From a virus, in IMG/VR virus record IMGVR_UViG_3300021139_001840, positions 32,792-96,791 of that record: a DNA stretch of 64,000 bases. One strand, given 5' to 3'. A program made the position numbers and the translations under genes. A model generated the notes under the pieces. The model was not told where the DNA came from and searched no databases. It saw only the letters and a list, made by a program, of their open reading frames with translations. This document shows, piece by piece, positions 6,085-61,570 of this stretch (its first letter is position 1; each line of letters starts with the position of its first letter).

Positions 6085-6262
6085 TTTATACTCCATTGTA
6101 GTTGAGTTACTTCCGACAGCACCTTGCTGTCCAAAGTATTTACGACCCATGATTTTTATATTCTATGGGTGTTAATAAGTGTAATAGATAGCATAAGTAC
6201 ATACCCAGGCCCCAAAAATTCAAAATAACCCTAACCTTTCCATTTAACTAAATAATAGTACC

Positions 6263-32321: not shown

Positions 32322-34042
32322 TCAAAGAAAACACCCCAACACCTGAACCAATAGTACAGGACGATCTTACTGCCAAGCAGTCGGACTATGCATTGTTCCT
32401 TCCGGCTCTTAGCGGCTTCTATGGTACTTTTATTGGCAAACAGCGTAGTGGACCTTTTGTAGCTCCTACTCGTATGCCTGCAAAGATCAAAGATATGGAA
32501 ATGCTTAACTGGTTAAACAAACAAAAAGGATTATTTCCATACAAGTGGAGTTTGTATTCGGCTGGTCATGCCAACTTAGATCTCACTAAGCAAGATTGGA
32601 ACGAAGATATGATACGAAATCGTGACCGTGCTAATACATTTGTATTGGGTGATTCGGGTGGTTTCCAAATTGGTAAAGGTGTGTGGGCCGGTGAATGGCG
32701 TGATCCCAATGGACCAGAAGTTCGAGCTAAGATGGCAGAAGCTCAAGCTAAAGGCATTGAACAAGTTCCTGCGCTTAAACCAGATGGCACACCCAAACAT
32801 GATAAAAATGGTAACACCAAGTACACTAAAATTGATCACGTAAAAGATTATCAAAACAAATTAGATGCGGCACAGAAAAAACGTGAAGCGGTCCTCACTT
32901 GGATGGATGGTATTATGGACTATGGCATGGTTCTTGATATCCCGGCTTGGGTAGAACGCAGTCCGGCGGGTCGTAAAGCAACAGGTATTGAATCATATCA
33001 ACAAGCGGTTGAAGCTACCAAATATAACAACGAATACTTTATTAAACATCGCAATGGTAACTGTAAGTTTTTAAATGTACTACAAGGTGAGAATCACGCA
33101 CAAGCAGATGACTGGTATGCACAAATGAAAGACTTTTGCGATCCAAACATCTACGGTGATAAAGCATTTAATGGTTGGGCCATGGGCGGCCAGAATATGT
33201 GTGATGTAGACTTAGTCTTGCGGAGATTGGTAGCCTTGAAGTTTGATGGATTGCTTAAAGAAGGGCAACACGATTGGATGCATTTCTTAGGCACAAGTAA
33301 ATTAGAATGGGCATTACTATTAACAGATATTCAGCGTGCCATTCGCAAGTATGTAAACCCAAGTTTTACTATATCGTTTGACTGTGCCAGTCCATTTTTG
33401 GCAACTGCTAACGGTCAAGTGTATCATCAAATAGATATTGAAGACAGACAAAAGTGGTGTTATCGTATGAGTTTTATTGCTGACAATAAAAAGTACTCCA
33501 CTGATACACGTTCATACCGCGATGCTGTGCTACAAGATGGATTAATTGGTCATTTTGATGATAGTCCTGTTAGTAAAAATTTACAAATTAAAGATGTTTG
33601 TTATTATCAACCAGGAATGCTAAACAAAATTGGTAAAGAAGGTAAAACCTCTTGGGATTCGTTTAGTTACGCATTACTAATGAGTCACAATGTTTGGTTG
33701 CATTTAGAATCGGTACAACGTGCTAATCGAGAATACGATGCTGGCAAATGTCCCAATATGCTTGTAGATGAACGCTTTGATACTGTATACTTTAAAGATG
33801 TAATAGAAGCTATATTTTCTGCTCCAGATCGCGAAACTGCCATTGCTATTATTGATTTGTATGATAAGTTTTGGCAAAGCATTATTGGCACCCGCGGGGC
33901 TACAGGCAAAAAAACTGTTAATGCTAGTACCATGTTTAGCAATTTATTTGCTGCAGAAGAACCAGAGCCAGATGAACATTATCTTGATGATTCTGGATTA
34001 GATGAATCTAAACTTGATGAATTGGAAAATAGTAATGCCTAA
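32318..34042 (+). CDS. dpdA: DpdA-like 7-deazaguanine DNA transglycosylase (TGT family)
   Basis: LGDSGGFQ, MVLDIP, LNVLQG, GWAMGG, HFLG, SFDCAS; folE/queD/queE nearby. Confidence 0.8.
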   Translation: MIKENTPTPEPIVQDDLTAKQSDYALFLPALSGFYGTFIGKQRSGPFVAPTRMPAKIKDMEMLNWLNKQKGLFPYKWSLYSAGHANLDLTKQDWNEDMIRNRDRANTFVLGDSGGFQIGKGVWAGEWRDPNGPEVRAKMAEAQAKGIEQVPALKPDGTPKHDKNGNTKYTKIDHVKDYQNKLDAAQKKREAVLTWMDGIMDYGMVLDIPAWVERSPAGRKATGIESYQQAVEATKYNNEYFIKHRNGNCKFLNVLQGENHAQADDWYAQMKDFCDPNIYGDKAFNGWAMGGQNMCDVDLVLRRLVALKFDGLLKEGQHDWMHFLGTSKLEWALLLTDIQRAIRKYVNPSFTISFDCASPFLATANGQVYHQIDIEDRQKWCYRMSFIADNKKYSTDTRSYRDAVLQDGLIGHFDDSPVSKNLQIKDVCYYQPGMLNKIGKEGKTSWDSFSYALLMSHNVWLHLESVQRANREYDAGKCPNMLVDERFDTVYFKDVIEAIFSAPDRETAIAIIDLYDKFWQSIIGTRGATGKKTVNASTMFSNLFAAEEPEPDEHYLDDSGLDESKLDELENSNA

Positions 34043-55852: not shown

Positions 55853-56056
55853 ATGGCAACAGGTAAAGTAAAGTGGTTTAATGATGCAAAAGGGTTTGGA
55901 TTTATTACCCCCGATGCTGGTGGTGAGGAATTGTTTGCACATTTTTCCGCAATTAGCACAAATGGTTTTAAGAGTTTAAAAGAGAATCAAGCGGTAACAT
56001 TCGATGTAGTGGCAGGCCCTAAAGGCAAGCAAGCATCAAATATTCTTCCGCTGTAA
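55853..56056 (+). CDS. cspA: cold-shock protein
   Basis: [15 protein letters not shown] (RNP1), LFAHFSAI (RNP2). Confidence 0.97.
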
Positions 56057-56106: not shown

Positions 56107-56500
56107 TGGCAGGCTTAAAAAGAGTATGCCACAAAACAGAAATTCGTTGAAGGTAGAAGTATAGCGATCAAGACTCGGGTGCAACTCCCGAATGGTCCAC
56201 CATAAGCATATTGCATAAAACCGGCTCACTCATCCGAGCGCAGGCAACCCAGTATGCTTTTGATGGGCCATAATTAGAATCGATTGGCGCTAAAGGGCTA
56301 CTGGAGGATCGGCAATGTAGAAGCCGTTAGGACTGGGGAAGCCTGGTCGGAGAAACAAAACTCGTAAATGCAAACGCAAATACAGGCGAAGTAACTGTTT
56401 CAGGTAAGAACGTTAAGTTCTCTGCTCGTACAGCACAACGCCAAACTTTAGCAGTTTAATCACTGCTTTGAGCAACTATGCTTCGAAACAGGAAATAGTC
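56107..56500 (+). ncRNA. ssrA: circularly permuted (two-piece) tmRNA
   Basis: Acceptor 3' piece GAC-TCGGG-TGCAACT-CCCGA-ATGGTCC-ACCA (to 56202) precedes 5' piece GGGCCAT (56265) with G3.U70; tag frame 56370-56459; outer ends approximate. Confidence 0.85.
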
Positions 56501-56624: not shown

Positions 56625-57113
56625 ATGAAAAAAGCAATCGTAGCATTAGCATTAGTAGCATTTACTGGTCTTGCATCAGCTGTTGAAGTTGGTGCGTTGT
56701 GGGATTGGGGTCACGGCACAAACGGTGGCACACGTCAAGCTGGCGGTGTATCTGTTGGTGACAAATTAGGCTCTTTAGATCCAAGTCTTGCTAAAGTTGG
56801 TGTTCAAGCAACTGCTGAACGTTCGACATCAGGTAGCCTTAATGTAAATCGTTATACAGCAAAAGCAAGTTATGATGTTATTACATTTGCTAACATTACA
56901 ACTAATGTTCACGCTGGTTTAGCATACATCGATCCGCAAAGCACCAGTTCTAAACTTGGTAACGGTACTTCTGCGTTAGTTGGATTTGGTTTTGCTTACC
57001 CAGTATACAAACAGGTTAGTTTGACTGCTGACTATGACTACCAAAAAAGCAACGGTGCCACTAAACCATTTAATGGCAACGTAATTACTACAGGTGTTAA
57101 GTACGCATTCTAA
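56625..57113 (+). CDS. outer-membrane beta-barrel protein (OmpA/Ail-like)
   Basis: Signal peptide ending ASA, amphipathic strands, C-terminal GVKYAF. Confidence 0.8.
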   Translation: MKKAIVALALVAFTGLASAVEVGALWDWGHGTNGGTRQAGGVSVGDKLGSLDPSLAKVGVQATAERSTSGSLNVNRYTAKASYDVITFANITTNVHAGLAYIDPQSTSSKLGNGTSALVGFGFAYPVYKQVSLTADYDYQKSNGATKPFNGNVITTGVKYAF

Positions 57114-57132
57114 TTTTATAATTAGAATATTC

Positions 57133-57156
57133 AAAAAAGCCCGCAAGGGCTTTTTT
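57133..57156 (+). terminator. intrinsic terminator
   Basis: AAAAAAGCCC-GCAA-GGGCTTTTTT. Confidence 0.9.
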
Positions 57157-57215
57157 GTTGACTTAAAATTCTATAGTACTTTAATGATACTGTTTAAGAT
57201 GTAAATAATTGCATC

Positions 57216-57470
57216 ATGCAAGCACTTTGGGATCGACATCCTGAATTACCTTATCGGGCTGTAGTACCTTGGCCCGAAATAGAACGCAACGGTAATTTAG
57301 ATTGGATAGCCAGTGTTGTAACTATACAGGATTGGCTTGAATCAACCGTAGGACCACATTATAGTCATTGGACTTGGGCCATGTGGACATTACATCAACC
57401 TAATTTATGTGGAGTTAGTTTTGCTCGAGATACTGATTCTACGCTATTTTTGTTAAAATGGAATCATTAG
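57216..57470 (+). CDS. hypothetical Trp-rich protein
   Basis: 84 aa, ends TLFLLKW. Confidence 0.65.
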   Translation: MQALWDRHPELPYRAVVPWPEIERNGNLDWIASVVTIQDWLESTVGPHYSHWTWAMWTLHQPNLCGVSFARDTDSTLFLLKWNH

Positions 57471-57483
57471 TTAAAAATAAAGG

Positions 57484-57512
57484 TTGACTAATAACCATAA
57501 ATAAACTATAAT
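57484..57512 (+). promoter_or_regulatory. composite sigma70 and late promoter
   Basis: TTGACT-17-TATAAT with TAAATA in the spacer. Confidence 0.8.
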
Positions 57513-57519
57513 ACATATT

Positions 57520-57642
57520 ATGAAATACATTAAATTAAATCATTCTTCGATACAACAGCCAACATTAGGCGGGCTAGGCTATTGGGCAGAAGATTGCTTA
57601 ATGATTAATAGCATTTGTGAACCAAACAAGGGTGTTAGTTAA
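57520..57642 (+). CDS. leaderless 40-aa leader peptide (candidate attenuator peptide)
   Basis: MKYIKLNHSSIQQPTLGGLGYWAEDCLMINSICEPNKGVS*; ATG 7 nt after -10. Confidence 0.6.
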   Translation: MKYIKLNHSSIQQPTLGGLGYWAEDCLMINSICEPNKGVS

Positions 57643-57701
57643 TAATATTGTATTAGTTATATTTTAATTAAAACCCTGAAATTAAAAACTTCAGGGTTTT
57701 T
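57629..57701 (+). terminator. overlapping antiterminator (57629-57677) and terminator (57670-57701)
   Basis: AGGGTGTTAGTTAA pairs TTAATTAAAACCCT; alternatively AAAACCCTGAA pairs TTCAGGGTTTT. Confidence 0.75.
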
Positions 57702-57722
57702 CATTTGTAAAAGGAAAGAAAG

Positions 57723-57905
57723 ATGACAATAGATTATAGTAAATTAAACAATCGTATTGTGGAACAAGCTCATCAGGCAGCTAAAAATTATTTTAGTTTA
57801 TCTGAAGACGAAAAGCAAAAATTGTTTCAGAATAAGATTGAGCGAGCGAAAACAATGCTTGAATTACGCGATAAAGATCCTGTTTATTTTCAAATTGAAG
57901 ATTAA
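57723..57905 (+). CDS. hypothetical protein
   Basis: 60 aa, AAGGA RBS, first gene after the terminator. Confidence 0.6.
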   Translation: MTIDYSKLNNRIVEQAHQAAKNYFSLSEDEKQKLFQNKIERAKTMLELRDKDPVYFQIED

Positions 57906-58021
57906 ACAGTATTAAAGTAGTAAAGTGTTATAGGAAACGAGATCCTGCTAGGCACTATAAACATCTGGCAAATGGGCGGCCTATCGGATGAAACTCCTTG
58001 TGTGGAGTGAAAAATGTTAGC

Positions 58022-58100
58022 GTAATAAAGTGTATTGCGTACCCGTTGTTGGTCGCTTACTCGCCAGAGTATTCCCTAAGCATACAATACACTTTATTAC
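58022..58100 (+). repeat. 16-bp perfect inverted repeat enclosing 47 nt
   Basis: GTAATAAAGTGTATTG / CAATACACTTTATTAC. Confidence 0.85.
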
Positions 58101-58125: not shown

Positions 58126-58214
58126 GGGTGCTATTCTCTGCGGGGGTCTGTAAAACCCTTGCCATAATATGCAGAGCGGCTGGCGATTAGGTTCAACTCC
58201 TTTAGTGCCCACCA
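58126..58214 (+). tRNA. atypical tRNA-Tyr(GTA) lacking a normal D-arm
   Basis: GGGTGCTA/TAGTGCCC-A-CCA, anticodon arm GGGGT-CTGTAAA-ACCCT, T-loop TTCAACT. Confidence 0.65.
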
Positions 58215-59113
58215 TCATATTCAGTAACCTGCAGAACAAGTTCCTTATAGGTTAAAGACGATTTGCCTTTTTTCTTGTTATTGTCAGAATGCGGCATTAG
58301 CTCGCAGTTAAGAGGATGAGTAATAAAATATGGATCGTAGTTATTTTTAATTGCTTCTGTAATAGATATTTTATGGTCTCTGCTTAGTCCGTTAGGATTC
58401 CATTTGCCGGATTTTCCACCAGGAGCATAAAATCCTACTGCGTTAAGTAAGTTAAGGTCGAACAAATCAGGATAGTCGTAAACATTAAATCGAAAACGAT
58501 ATTCGCTTCGTTTATTGGAATGATATTCTTTATGAGTATTACAGAATTGAAGGCTTGTCCTTGCTAAAAATTTAATGTGGCATACTTTGCAAGAACACTT
58601 GCGTAAGGGAGAGAAATCCCCTACAATTTCTACTTGTTCAGTCGGATTTTTTCTACCTCGACAATCTTCGTTGCAGAATCGGCGAGGAGATTTAGATAAA
58701 AATACTTTAGAGCATTTTTCGCAAGTATTTTTTGCTAACGGTGAAAAATCACCGCTTATTTCGATACCATACATAGTTGATTGAGTAGATAAGCGTTGTT
58801 GTTGACGAGATTCAGCGGAATGTGTGGAATTAGTAGCACTTGATGAACAAGATTTAGAACAATAAGTTAAGTGCCTTGATTCGTAAGGCAATGTAGTATT
58901 ACAATGAGCGCAAGTTGTTGGAGACAGATAATACTTAGTGATTCGATCATTAAGATTTTTTATGTTTGAATCTTTAGCAATCTTAAATCCAGCCATTGAC
59001 TTATCGTAGTGTTTCTTAGCATATTCTTTATCGTGTGCTATTAAAAAATGAGTGTGTATGCCTTTGGTAGATTTTACTTCGTGGCATGCAATACAAGAAC
59101 ATAGTGTTTTCAT
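58202..59113 (-). CDS. HNH-type homing endonuclease with zinc-ribbon repeats
   Basis: Many CxxC; SRDHKIS..HPLNCELM..DNNKK. Confidence 0.8.
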   Translation of the reverse strand: MKTLCSCIACHEVKSTKGIHTHFLIAHDKEYAKKHYDKSMAGFKIAKDSNIKNLNDRITKYYLSPTTCAHCNTTLPYESRHLTYCSKSCSSSATNSTHSAESRQQQRLSTQSTMYGIEISGDFSPLAKNTCEKCSKVFLSKSPRRFCNEDCRGRKNPTEQVEIVGDFSPLRKCSCKVCHIKFLARTSLQFCNTHKEYHSNKRSEYRFRFNVYDYPDLFDLNLLNAVGFYAPGGKSGKWNPNGLSRDHKISITEAIKNNYDPYFITHPLNCELMPHSDNNKKKGKSSLTYKELVLQVTEYDGGH

Positions 59114-59166: not shown

Positions 59167-59222
59167 GTTGTAAAAATACAACACCTAATTTGGTTGACAA
59201 TTAATTCAACCGAAGCTATAAT
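59167..59222 (+). promoter_or_regulatory. palindromic site plus sigma70 promoter
   Basis: GTTGTAAAAATACAAC then TTGACA-17-TATAAT. Confidence 0.75.
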
Positions 59223-59808: not shown

Positions 59809-59886
59809 GGTAAGGTGGCAGAGAGGCCCAATGCAAGGGACTGCAAATCCCTAAAATCGTGAGTTCGAATCTCACCCTTACCTCCA
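59809..59886 (+). tRNA. tRNA-Cys(GCA)
   Basis: AGGGA-CTGCAAA-TCCCT, U73, CCA. Confidence 0.92.
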
Positions 59887-59892
59887 AACAAT

Positions 59893-59966
59893 CGCGGGAT
59901 GGAATATCGGTAGTTCGCTGGTCTCATAAGCCAGTCAGCCAGGTTCGACTCCTGGTCCCGCAACCA
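59893..59966 (+). tRNA. initiator-type tRNA-Met(CAT)
   Basis: CGCGGGA with C1:A72 mismatch, CTCATAA loop, CCA. Confidence 0.85.
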
Positions 59967-59971
59967 AATAC

Positions 59972-60047
59972 GGATTACTAGCTCAATCGGGAGAGCACTG
60001 CACTGTCACTGCAGAGGTAAGGAGATCGAAACTCCTGTAGTCCGCCA
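59972..60047 (+). tRNA. tRNA-Asp(GTC)
   Basis: CTGCA-CTGTCAC-TGCAG, G73, CCA. Confidence 0.9.
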
Positions 60048-60134
60048 AGTTTTAGGTTGACAATAAATTCAACCAGTGTTATACTAAGGATAGTTAAAAC
60101 AATGTAAAATAGAGGTTCGATACTAAATAATAGT

Positions 60135-60893
60135 ATGAAAACGTGTCCTAAATGTAATACAACACATAGTAAAGCAGGTATGTATTGTTCAAGAACTTGT
60201 GCAAACAGTAGATCCTGGTCCGAGGCTGATAAAGCAGTTAAATCTACCGCGGCGTTTAAAAGCGATAAAGTTATTAAAGCTACGACTATTGTTAAATCTT
60301 GCAAGTGCGGTGATACCTTCGAGACAAAACCATATCTTAGTAAAACATACTGTTCGCGTAAATGTTCGTCTAAGTATCAGCGCAAGGCACCAGGCGGATA
60401 TAGAGAAGGATCCGGTCGCAGTAAATCGGGTTACTACCGGGGAATATATTGCGGCTCTACTTACGAATTATGCTGGGTCATTTATAGCATCGAACACGAT
60501 ATTAAATTTACTCGATTCGATGGTGTCCTTGAACATAATAGTGTAAAATATTATCCCGATTTCTTGTTAGCAGACAATAAAACTATCATCGAGACTAAAG
60601 GATACGAGAAGCAAGATTCAGTAGATCGTAAGACTAAAGTAGCAGAGCACTTCGGATACAATGTAAAAGTATTGCGAAGAGATGATTTACAGTATGCGTT
60701 CGATTATGTAACGCAACAATATAACACTAGTGAATATTATACACTATTCGACGGATATAAACCTAAATATGAATATGTATGTAATCACTGTAATAACAGA
60801 TTTAGTAAAAATAAAAAATTAAAAACCGATGTAGTCTTCTGCTCGCGCACTTGTGCTGGTAAAGGACACAAAGGTAGAGTTATGTCCTCATAG
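60135..60893 (+). CDS. PD-(D/E)xK-type putative homing endonuclease with zinc ribbons
   Basis: YCSRTCA repeats; STYE, YYPDF..IIETKGY; stop lies inside tRNA-Glu. Confidence 0.8.
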   Translation: MKTCPKCNTTHSKAGMYCSRTCANSRSWSEADKAVKSTAAFKSDKVIKATTIVKSCKCGDTFETKPYLSKTYCSRKCSSKYQRKAPGGYREGSGRSKSGYYRGIYCGSTYELCWVIYSIEHDIKFTRFDGVLEHNSVKYYPDFLLADNKTIIETKGYEKQDSVDRKTKVAEHFGYNVKVLRRDDLQYAFDYVTQQYNTSEYYTLFDGYKPKYEYVCNHCNNRFSKNKKLKTDVVFCSRTCAGKGHKGRVMSS

Positions 60894-60960
60894 TTTATGT
60901 TGGTTAGAACCCCGGCCTTTCACGTCGGTAAGCCCGGATCGTCACCGGGTGAGGACGCCA
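60884..60960 (+). tRNA. tRNA-Glu(TTC)
   Basis: GTCCTCA/TGAGGAC, CCGGC-CTTTCAC-GTCGG, CCA. Confidence 0.85.
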
Positions 60961-60966
60961 AGTATT

Positions 60967-61042
60967 GCCCTTATAGCTCAGTTGGTAGAGTACCTGTTTT
61001 GTAATCAGGATGTCCCGTGTTCGAATCATGGTGAGGGCACCA
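60967..61042 (+). tRNA. tRNA-Thr(TGT)
   Basis: Canonical D-arm, TTTGTAA loop, CCA. Confidence 0.9.
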
Positions 61043-61049
61043 AAACAAT

Positions 61050-61127
61050 CTGTGTGTAATGTCAACCTGGTAGACGGCCTTGTTTGGAACGAGGAGGCTG
61101 GAGGTTCAAATCCTCCCACGCAGACCA
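61050..61127 (+). tRNA. tRNA-Pro(TGG)
   Basis: TTTGGAA loop, GGAGG-TTCAAAT-CCTCC, CCA. Confidence 0.88.
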
Positions 61128-61135
61128 CAATCTAT

Positions 61136-61214
61136 TCCGCAGAATCCGAGCTAGGCGCACGGACTTGACTGTTAATCAATGACTAGCTGGGTTCGAGCCC
61201 ACGCTGTGGAGCCA
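61136..61214 (+). tRNA. tRNA-Asn(GTT)
   Basis: TCCGCAG/CTGTGGA, CTGTTAA loop, G73, CCA; irregular T-arm. Confidence 0.8.
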
Positions 61215-61222
61215 GTAATAAA

Positions 61223-61315
61223 GGAAGGTAATGCAGTGGGGATGGTCCCGCGACTGGCCTTGAAAACCAGGTTCTGCCAAAAGCGGATGGAGTTCGACTC
61301 TTCTGCCTTCCGCCA
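61223..61315 (+). tRNA. tRNA-Ser(TGA), 8/4-type fold
   Basis: 8-bp acceptor GGAAGGTA/TGCCTTCC, 4-bp T-stem, long variable arm, CTTGAAA loop. Confidence 0.85.
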
Positions 61316-61321
61316 AACTAA

Positions 61322-61408
61322 GGAAGATGTGTTGCAAGGTGCGACCGAGGTTTGCTAAACCTCCGTTCAGAAATGGGCTGATAGGTTCGATTCCTATATC
61401 TTCCGCCA
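61322..61408 (+). tRNA. tRNA-Ser(GCT)
   Basis: GAGGT-TTGCTAA-ACCTC, long variable arm, G73, CCA. Confidence 0.88.
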
Positions 61409-61413
61409 GTAGT

Positions 61414-61487
61414 GCGGGTATGATGAAAAGGTATCCTGAATCCTTGCCAAGGATTATTTGAGAGTTCGATTCTCTCTACCCGCTCCA
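61414..61487 (+). tRNA. tRNA-Gly(GCC)
   Basis: GCGGGTA/TACCCGC, TTGCCAA loop, U73, CCA. Confidence 0.9.
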
Positions 61488-61493
61488 AACAAT

Positions 61494-61570
61494 GGGTCTT
61501 TAGCTCAATGGATTAGAGTTCTGGTCTTCGAAACCAGCGGTTGGGAGTTCGAGTCTCTCAAGACCCACCA
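61494..61570 (+). tRNA. tRNA-Arg(TCG)
   Basis: CTGGT-CTTCGAA-ACCAG, CCA. Confidence 0.9.

Follow-up and report, generated by a model that had tools for sequence, protein, structure and literature searches.

A probable leader-peptide transcription attenuator at the head of a tRNA operon in uncultured freshwater jumbo phages

The window analyzed here is a stretch of 64,000 nucleotides (nt) that forms part of a 96.8-kilobase IMG/VR virus contig from a freshwater jumbo phage (record IMGVR_UViG_3300021139_001840, positions 32,792 to 96,791). At positions 57484 to 57720 of its plus strand, a compact unit composed of a promoter, a short open reading frame (ORF), and an intrinsic terminator precedes a gene for a 60-amino-acid (aa) protein, a structured RNA, and tRNA genes. 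Judged by comparison with its relatives, this unit is a real and strongly conserved regulatory element, and we consider it probable (roughly 70%) that it represents a ribosome-dependent, i.e., leader-peptide, transcription attenuator heading the operon of the 60-aa gene, the structured RNA, and the tRNAs. Sequence comparison establishes that two helices exclude each other and covary and that the ORF is under selection, along with the synteny of the region.

Organization of the unit and its competing helices

The unit begins with a sigma-70-type promoter (TTGACT-17-TATAAT, positions 57484 to 57512, score 11/12), the spacer of which contains a TAAATA motif (57498 to 57503). The leader ORF of 40 codons (57520 to 57642) lacks a Shine-Dalgarno (SD) sequence, and its ATG at position 57520 is located 7 nt past the −10 hexamer; with the transcription start inferred from the promoter position, the mRNA would be leaderless or nearly so. 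The candidate control codon is the UGG codon for Trp22 (57583 to 57585), and the ORF ends with a TAA codon (57640 to 57642). The intrinsic terminator (57670 to 57705) is formed by AAAACCCTGAA and TTCAGGGTTTT, with a stem at positions 57670 to 57680 and 57690 to 57700, a loop of 9 nt, and a subsequent T-run; the energy of its 9-bp core was calculated as −10.8 kcal/mol (RNAfold). A simple terminator scan with a loop limit of 8 nt misses this terminator solely because its loop is 9 nt long. Next, at positions 57711 to 57905, come an SD sequence (AAAGGAAAG, 57711 to 57719) and the gene for the 60-aa protein (57723 to 57905), which has no promoter of its own.

The end of the leader ORF is complementary to the region of the terminator 5′ arm. 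Specifically, positions 57629 to 57642 and 57664 to 57677 are matched by 12 Watson-Crick pairs and one G·U pair, with a single mismatch, in agreement with the 13 of 14 pairs given in an initial annotation made from the window alone; its placement of the promoter, the spacer TAAATA, the 40-codon ORF, the terminator, and the competing pairing proved accurate throughout. The duplex has an energy of −13.1 kcal/mol, compared with −5.9 ± 2.2 kcal/mol for dinucleotide-shuffled tails (z = −3.3; P about 0.003). According to a sliding-window duplex scan, the 5′ strand of the antiterminator (57628 to 57648) covers the final five sense codons, the stop codon, and 6 nt beyond it, and according to the duplex and covariation analyses its 3′ strand (57660 to 57680) includes the 5′ arm of the terminator (57670 to 57680), making this the strand shared by both structures. 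The fold of positions 57520 to 57705 is more stable than that of shuffled sequences (z = −2.9), and a hairpin at positions 57598 to 57643 is present in the minimum-energy fold of the window sequence.

Relatives were identified in viral and metagenome collections, first with the flanking 84- and 60-aa proteins as queries and subsequently with a profile built from the 60-aa protein, which resulted in 66 loci whose 60-aa proteins are 41 to 82% identical to that of the window. A search of the viral collection with the exact terminator sequence returned 10 contigs, seven of them new, and all 10 displayed the same layout. Fifty distinct units from uncultured freshwater phages were left after removal of duplicates. 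The ATG lies 6 to 11 nt past the −10 box of a consensus promoter in 42 of these units, and the remaining eight have a homologous, longer ORF behind an SD-bearing leader. Since these eight relatives retain both the ORF and the pairing, translation rather than leaderlessness appears to be the constant property of the unit. All leaderless-type relatives carry TTGAC(A/C/T)-17/18-TA(T/C)AAT, and (T)ATAAATA or CTAAATA is found in the spacer of 37 of 39 leaderless-type units. While the length of the ORF ranges from 27 to 56 codons, the distance between the stop codon and the start of the terminator stem is 22 to 31 nt in all 50 units, which should leave enough room for a terminating ribosome to spare the hairpin. 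Every unit likewise has a GC-rich stem and a T-run, from which the start of the 60-aa gene is about 25 nt away. Some relatives have a divergent gene upstream, so that the leader promoter is the only source of transcripts there. As anticipated in the initial annotation, the ORF stop keeps its position across the relatives and compensatory changes occur in both hairpins, and a search for relatives that keep the terminator while losing the overlap between ORF and antiterminator found none. In a single relative (L068, positions 1290 to 1500), a frameshift close to the end of the leader ORF extends it through the terminator (57 codons), which could be due to decay or to an assembly error.

For each of 44 distinct sequences, the terminator 5′ arm together with 12 nt of its 5′ flank was scanned along the transcript in a sliding window for its best partner. 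This partner was the 3′ end of the ORF in all 44 cases, and the pairing included the stop codon in 36. The mean energy of the cognate duplexes was −17.9 kcal/mol, that of noncognate ones −11.9 kcal/mol, and the mean z value against shuffled tails was −4.2. The sequence of the helix varies by clade (TTGAATA/TATTCAA, TAGTTAA/TTAAYYAA, ATGATTA/TAATCAT, CGAATA/TATTCG, and CAGATAAAA/TTTTGTCTA), and so does its G-rich part (GGGGC/GCCCC, GAGGT/ACCTC, and GGGTC/GACCC). In a MAFFT alignment made blind to structure, 79.9% of the antiterminator cells are paired, a value that drops to 14 to 49% if the partner is slid. Changes on both sides were found at 8 of its 11 pairs, amounting to 38 such alignment cells versus 13.8 ± 4.7 in shuffles, none of 500 of which reached 38. 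The terminator is paired in 98.6% of the cells across the family, with both-sided changes at four of nine pairs. The occurrence of G·U pairs indicates that the structure belongs to the plus-strand RNA.

Folding calculations were performed for different states of the transcript. If the nascent RNA ends at the terminator 5′ arm, the antiterminator is part of the minimum-energy fold in 43 of the 44 sequences. In the complete leader, the terminator is part of this fold in 26 of 44, the two states differing by about 5.6 kcal/mol on average. Thermodynamically, a 30-nt ribosome footprint centered on the stop codon is predicted to render the terminator the minimum-energy fold in 40 of 44 sequences, and a footprint over the Trp codon is predicted to allow formation of the antiterminator in 43 of 44. 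A function as an RNase III processing stem was considered and set aside, the duplexes comprising just 11 to 20 bp with internal loops. The terminator loop itself (57681 to 57689; ATTAAAAAC in the window) corresponds in the relatives to a near-invariant 9-nt sequence, ACTAAACAC, despite their divergence (alignment A2, columns 107 to 115), and may be a contact site for a protein or an RNA.

The nearest cultured phages, Agrobacterium phage Atu_ph07 and Sinorhizobium phage Phosso, have units that appear to be analogues of that in the window; each is a single sequence, with no covariation behind it. In Atu_ph07 (MF403008.1, 339040 to 339250, minus strand), an annotated, Trp-containing ORF of 42 aa (339118 to 339246) is located upstream of the main tRNA array; a terminator lies 31 nt past its stop codon, and the 3′ part of the ORF matches the terminator 5′ arm perfectly over 10 bp (−20.3 kcal/mol; z = −3.1). 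In Phosso (PV764938.1, 419754 to 419975), the corresponding place is occupied by a Trp-containing ORF of 54 aa (419754 to 419918), again preceding the main tRNA array. Its terminator (near positions 419947 to 419975) lies 29 nt past the stop codon, and the 3′ part of the ORF pairs with the terminator 5′ arm at −24.1 kcal/mol (z = −5.2).

Selection on the leader ORF and its peptide

Within 35 distinct leaders (1,221 codons), the leader frame contains no in-frame stop codon, whereas the other two frames contain 134 and 81. Differences in leader length are multiples of three, and the frame survives many insertions and deletions. The ratio of nonsynonymous to synonymous changes (pN/pS) amounts to about 0.4 for all codons except the final six, for which it is 0.6 to 0.9, in keeping with a tail under constraint as RNA and a remainder under constraint as peptide or as codons. 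By this measure, the leader peptide is under purifying selection. The mean identity among the 41 distinct leader peptides (alignment A5) is 24%, and besides Met1 a single Trp is the only invariant residue. This conservation contradicts the prediction in the initial annotation of diverse codons without a conserved peptide. A Trp residue is encoded by the leaders of all 50 units, whereas roughly half of random peptides of the same lengths would have none. Most leaders contain a single Trp codon, those of one clade contain two, and codon runs are absent; Cys residues number 0 to 2 per peptide without forming a poly-Cys tract. The invariant Trp codon never lies closer than 21 nt to the antiterminator strand, on its 5′ side, and in many of the 33-codon leaders this distance is exactly 21 to 22 nt; the distance from Trp to the stop codon varies from 11 to about 30 residues. 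A SecM-like C-terminal motif, W-x6-I-R-G, which is present in some leaders, was disregarded as a by-product, since the G-run of the antiterminator strand determines its I-[RQK]-G part.

Proposed mechanism and rival explanations

In the proposed mechanism, transcription from the consensus promoter would begin at, or a few nucleotides from, the AUG of the short ORF, whose last 15 to 20 nt, including the stop codon, would pair with the terminator 5′ arm and its 5′ flank 22 to 31 nt further on. If no ribosome is present at the end of the ORF once the terminator 5′ arm has been made, the antiterminator would form first and RNA polymerase would continue into the 60-aa gene, the structured RNA, and the tRNA genes. 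A ribosome keeping pace with the polymerase would be at or near the stop codon and hold the antiterminator 5′ strand single-stranded, allowing the terminator hairpin to fold and yielding a terminated transcript of about 180 nt. Slow or failed translation of the leader is thus expected to increase read-through. A leaderless start would enable the ribosome to load once the 5′ end emerges, which would suit a race over only about 100 nt. We infer from the comparative data that the ORF is translated and that the terminator works, and likewise the direction and the signal of the switch. For the latter, pausing at the invariant Trp codon is the most specific candidate, with the overall speed of translation as an alternative.

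Several observations weigh against an attenuator of this kind. The leader contains no run of regulatory codons, and a conserved upstream 1:2 (pause/anti-antiterminator) hairpin was looked for in alignment A2 and not found, both in contrast to textbook attenuators. With no conserved upstream hairpin competing with the antiterminator for the ORF tail, the default in the absence of a ribosome should be read-through, unlike in the trp leader. The ATG of 17 of the 39 leaderless-type units is located 9 to 11 nt past the −10 box, implying a leader of 2 to 5 nt, and leaders of this length lower leaderless translation in Escherichia coli. The conserved leader peptide may be a small protein acting in trans. 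Finally, promoters or promoter-like sites between the terminator and most of the tRNAs in the window, in Phosso, and in some relatives indicate that read-through is not the only route to the tRNAs. In the window, these are consensus promoters at positions 59194 to 59222 (12/12) and 60057 to 60085 (11/12), both noted previously and found to be real matches; Phosso has promoter-like sites after the terminator; and some relatives have a TTGACA-18-TATACT sequence within the structured RNA, overlapping its first hairpin, that may offer an alternative route of tRNA transcription. In the window, therefore, strict gating is predicted for no more than the 60-aa gene and the structured RNA next to it.

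With regard to the signal, the attenuator might serve as a translation sensor by which phage tRNA operons are feedback-controlled through a ribosome-polymerase race with the invariant Trp codon as a checkpoint, supplying the phage's own tRNAs on demand when translation falters due to host tRNA decay, a tRNA-cleaving defense, or starvation; we put this forward tentatively, as a possibility with the odds against it. The initial annotation had gone further and regarded the leader as a sampler of nearly all codons that reports a shortage of almost any tRNA and switches on the array as a counter-defense against anticodon nucleases. The logic of the switch, from slow translation to read-through, fits this idea, as do the position of the unit at the head of the tRNA array in 17 of 17 long contigs and the residue types of the family's leader peptides, which exceed expectation by about 1.8 to 2.3; moreover, rescue of infection from tRNA-cleaving defenses by phage tRNAs is known (PMC11555353, PMC11464382). 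The excess of residue types, however, is in part due to Trp, a rare residue that is never missing, and to Cys, which is usually there. The peptide of the window does use 18 of the 20 amino acids, Phe and Arg being absent, but this diversity is unremarkable, since at least 18 types in 40 residues are obtained with a probability of 0.29 in random draws and of 0.21 in real 40-aa windows of the phage's proteins. Furthermore, the leader peptide is conserved, contrary to prediction, the leader codons are not enriched for those read by the phage tRNAs (P < 0.05 in 1 of 14 phages), and a ribosome paused in the last approximately five codons would still cover the antiterminator strand, so that not every codon could report. 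A sampler of this breadth is therefore quite unlikely. A narrower sensor, specific for Trp or for the nascent peptide, would free the antiterminator by pausing at the invariant UGG, caused either by low levels of Trp-tRNA or by peptide-dependent arrest with Trp in the exit tunnel. The presence of Trp in all 50 units and its invariance in the 41 distinct peptides argue for such a sensor, as does its distance of at least 21 nt from the antiterminator strand, which a ribosome paused there would leave free, and tRNA-Trp(CCA) is encoded in 15 of 17 arrays. On the other hand, mostly a single Trp codon is present instead of the tandem codons of classical attenuators, the variable distance between Trp and the stop codon does not readily agree with a TnaC-type arrest of fixed spacing, and the window's own array lacks tRNA-Trp; on balance we consider a sensor of either type unlikely.

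In another explanation, the unit is an ordinary small-protein gene with a leaky terminator, the 27- to 56-aa peptide being its product and the pairing serving mRNA stability or being a by-product. Purifying selection on the peptide and its invariant Trp are in line with this explanation, the Phosso unit could stand alone given the promoter-like sites that follow its terminator, and the trans-acting attenuator leader peptide peTrpL (PMC7298713) makes a dual role possible. What it leaves unexplained is the stop codon within a covarying helix that excludes the terminator, the rise of pN/pS to 0.6 to 0.9 in the last six codons with the pairing kept, and the next gene always lying within approximately 25 nt without a promoter, which together make a mere small-protein gene improbable. 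A further explanation is a temporal switch by promoter choice: early sigma-70 transcripts would be leaderless, translated, and terminated, whereas transcripts starting at the spacer TAAATA or at a TAAATA at position 57202, which precedes the upstream 84-aa ORF, would carry the leader ORF behind an SD-less leader, escape translation, and read through, turning on the tRNA operon late. The spacer TAAATA in 37 of 39 leaderless-type units, the presence of (C)TAAATA ahead of many gene starts in the window, as would be the case for a T4-type late promoter, the placement of the phage by its DNA polymerase in the T4-related Atu_ph07/Rak2-like jumbo group, and a scan of the window in which no terminator was seen between the 84-aa ORF and the leader are all compatible with such a switch. 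The promoter function of TAAATA, however, is an assumption, and a switch based on leaderlessness is at odds with the eight SD-led variants, leaving promoter choice rather doubtful. Finally, a noncoding small RNA gene, with a promoter, an RNA of about 180 nt, a terminator, and a fortuitous ORF, would account for the strong promoter and terminator bracketing such a stretch and for a fold of positions 57520 to 57705 that beats shuffled sequences (z = −2.9), but is highly improbable in view of the 0 in-frame stop codons versus 134 and 81, the maintenance of the frame through insertions and deletions, and the existence of SD-led variants.

The leader-peptide attenuator, which we favor over these explanations, can be compared with several known systems. 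With the proteobacterial trp, his, leu, thr, ilv, and pheA attenuators the unit shares a promoter-proximal short ORF and an intrinsic terminator before the first downstream gene, a strand common to antiterminator and terminator, a ribosome at the leader stop that covers the antiterminator 5′ strand, and slow translation leading to read-through. In contrast to these, it has one invariant Trp codon instead of tandem regulatory codons and no conserved 1:2 hairpin, its predicted ribosome-free default is read-through rather than termination, its start is leaderless, it is phage encoded, and a 60-aa protein, a structured RNA, and tRNAs take the place of biosynthetic enzymes. As far as sequence can tell, the unit thus has the structural features of leader-peptide attenuators, i.e., a selected short ORF, a terminator, and an exclusive antiterminator under the ribosome at the stop codon, but not the tandem codons or the 1:2 hairpin. 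In antibiotic-resistance attenuators and arrest peptides such as TnaC and SecM, a ribosome paused on a short leader ORF also chooses between RNA structures, and residues conserved in their leaders, among them a Trp in both TnaC and SecM, are important. Unlike in those systems, the spacing between Trp and the stop codon is not fixed in the phage leaders, and TnaC acts on Rho-dependent termination, whereas the phage unit would act on an intrinsic terminator. Mycobacterial leaderless polycysteine small ORFs (Canestrari et al., bioRxiv 10.1101/834739) similarly constitute the first cistron, and the position of the ribosome controls the downstream operon via alternative RNA structures; they act, however, on translation by sequestration of the ribosome binding site, whereas in the phage unit it is an intrinsic terminator that competes, and the next SD sequence lies outside the helix. 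The trpL leader of Sinorhizobium meliloti (rnTrpL and peTrpL; PMC6614838, PMC7298713) is likewise a ribosome-dependent attenuator in an alphaproteobacterial setting, and its terminated RNA and leader peptide are themselves functional, providing a precedent for a conserved leader peptide. It differs from the phage unit in having tandem Trp codons and in controlling trp genes.

A literature search of limited reach found no description of a ribosome-dependent attenuator for a phage or for tRNA genes. If confirmed, the unit would, to judge from this literature, be the first of its kind on two counts, as a ribosome-mediated attenuator of a phage and as one controlling tRNA genes. Cellular tRNA genes are controlled at their promoters, and T-boxes control synthetases. 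How the tRNA arrays of phages are timed and dosed is largely unknown, and such tRNAs can defeat tRNA-cleaving defenses. The proposed switch is compact, about 240 nt, and unusual in combining a leaderless leader, one invariant Trp codon, a stop codon inside the antiterminator, and a predicted read-through default. Its apparent recurrence in Atu_ph07 and Phosso, jumbo phages of Rhizobiales, suggests that the design may be general in this phage lineage, and both phages, being cultured with laboratory hosts, are leads that offer experimental systems. Conserved small ORFs in intergenic regions of phages can thus be regulatory.

The downstream operon and the genomic context

Since no promoter occupies the approximately 25 nt between the T-run and the 60-aa gene, expression of this gene should require read-through. 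No match for the 60-aa protein was found in Pfam, PHROGs, PDB, Foldseek, or Atlas, nor by tblastn in cultured phages; its AlphaFold2 model is a two-helix hairpin with a predicted local distance difference test (pLDDT) value of 82.6. The conserved structured RNA lies in the interval between the 60-aa gene and the tRNA array, at approximate window positions 57930 to 58030, and about 20 to 150 nt past the 60-aa gene in the relatives L017 to L079. RNAalifold analysis of 28 relatives revealed compensatory changes at 17 of 19 predicted pairs, conserved hairpin loops (AACGAG and CACTATAAAC), and a conserved GGGCGG motif; a comparison with Rfam yielded no family. From its arrangement, this RNA is codirectional with the 60-aa gene and presumably cotranscribed with it.

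With the exception of one tRNA-Met, the tRNA genes of 17 long contigs are all located downstream of the unit and on the same strand. The arrays comprise 2 to 28 tRNAs and, where checked, start 200 to 400 nt after the 60-aa gene. tRNA-Trp(CCA), present in 15 of these 17 arrays, is missing from that of the window, which has nine recognizable tRNAs at positions 59809 to 61570. The link between the unit and the tRNA array that had been proposed initially is thus supported by synteny in the long contigs but is weaker in the window, where an HNH endonuclease gene (58202 to 59113, minus strand) separates the unit from its nine tRNAs and the two consensus promoters described above intervene as well. 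These two promoters have a common spacer start, AAT(T/A)AATTCAACC, and adjoin two HNH genes (58202 to 59113, minus strand, and 60135 to 60893), and they may have traveled with HNH insertions. The exceptional upstream tRNA-Met adjoins a transfer-messenger RNA (tmRNA) gene in the loci checked. In the window, a permuted (two-piece) tmRNA was found at positions 56142 to 56402 (Rfam RF04321, 66 bits), and ARAGORN located permuted tmRNAs at the same place in the relatives L002, L003, and L030, each preceded by tRNA-Met.

The family B DNA polymerase of the window phage is 46 to 50% identical to the enzymes of Phosso and Atu_ph07, which places the phage, by this marker, in the T4-related jumbo group together with Rak2/PBECO4-like phages and Atu_ph07. 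Neither megablast nor blastn, run with positions 57200 to 58000 against deposited phages, returned a useful match, and among public sequencing runs none of RNA was listed as containing the sequence. In the window, 12 ORFs with a minimum length of 50 aa begin 4 to 8 nt after (C)TAAATA without an SD sequence (e.g., at positions 6249, 14366, 16271, 20867, 54186, 55598, 57202, and 60124); on account of these, leaderless expression seems to be normal for this phage, and their arrangement suggests that T4-type late promoters commonly give rise to leaderless mRNAs in it. The leader (57484 to 57720) had no match among the Rfam families, and the sole leader-type match in the scan, Thr_leader at positions 57066 to 57159, lies outside the unit and scored 25 bits, compared with a gathering score of 55 (E = 0.33). 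Further upstream, an ORF for a CspA-like cold-shock protein (55853 to 56056) is located behind a 12/12 consensus promoter (55796), and a 162-aa ORF (56625 to 57113) has a signal-peptide-like start and a weak Pfam match to an OMP beta-barrel family (E = 3.6e-4).

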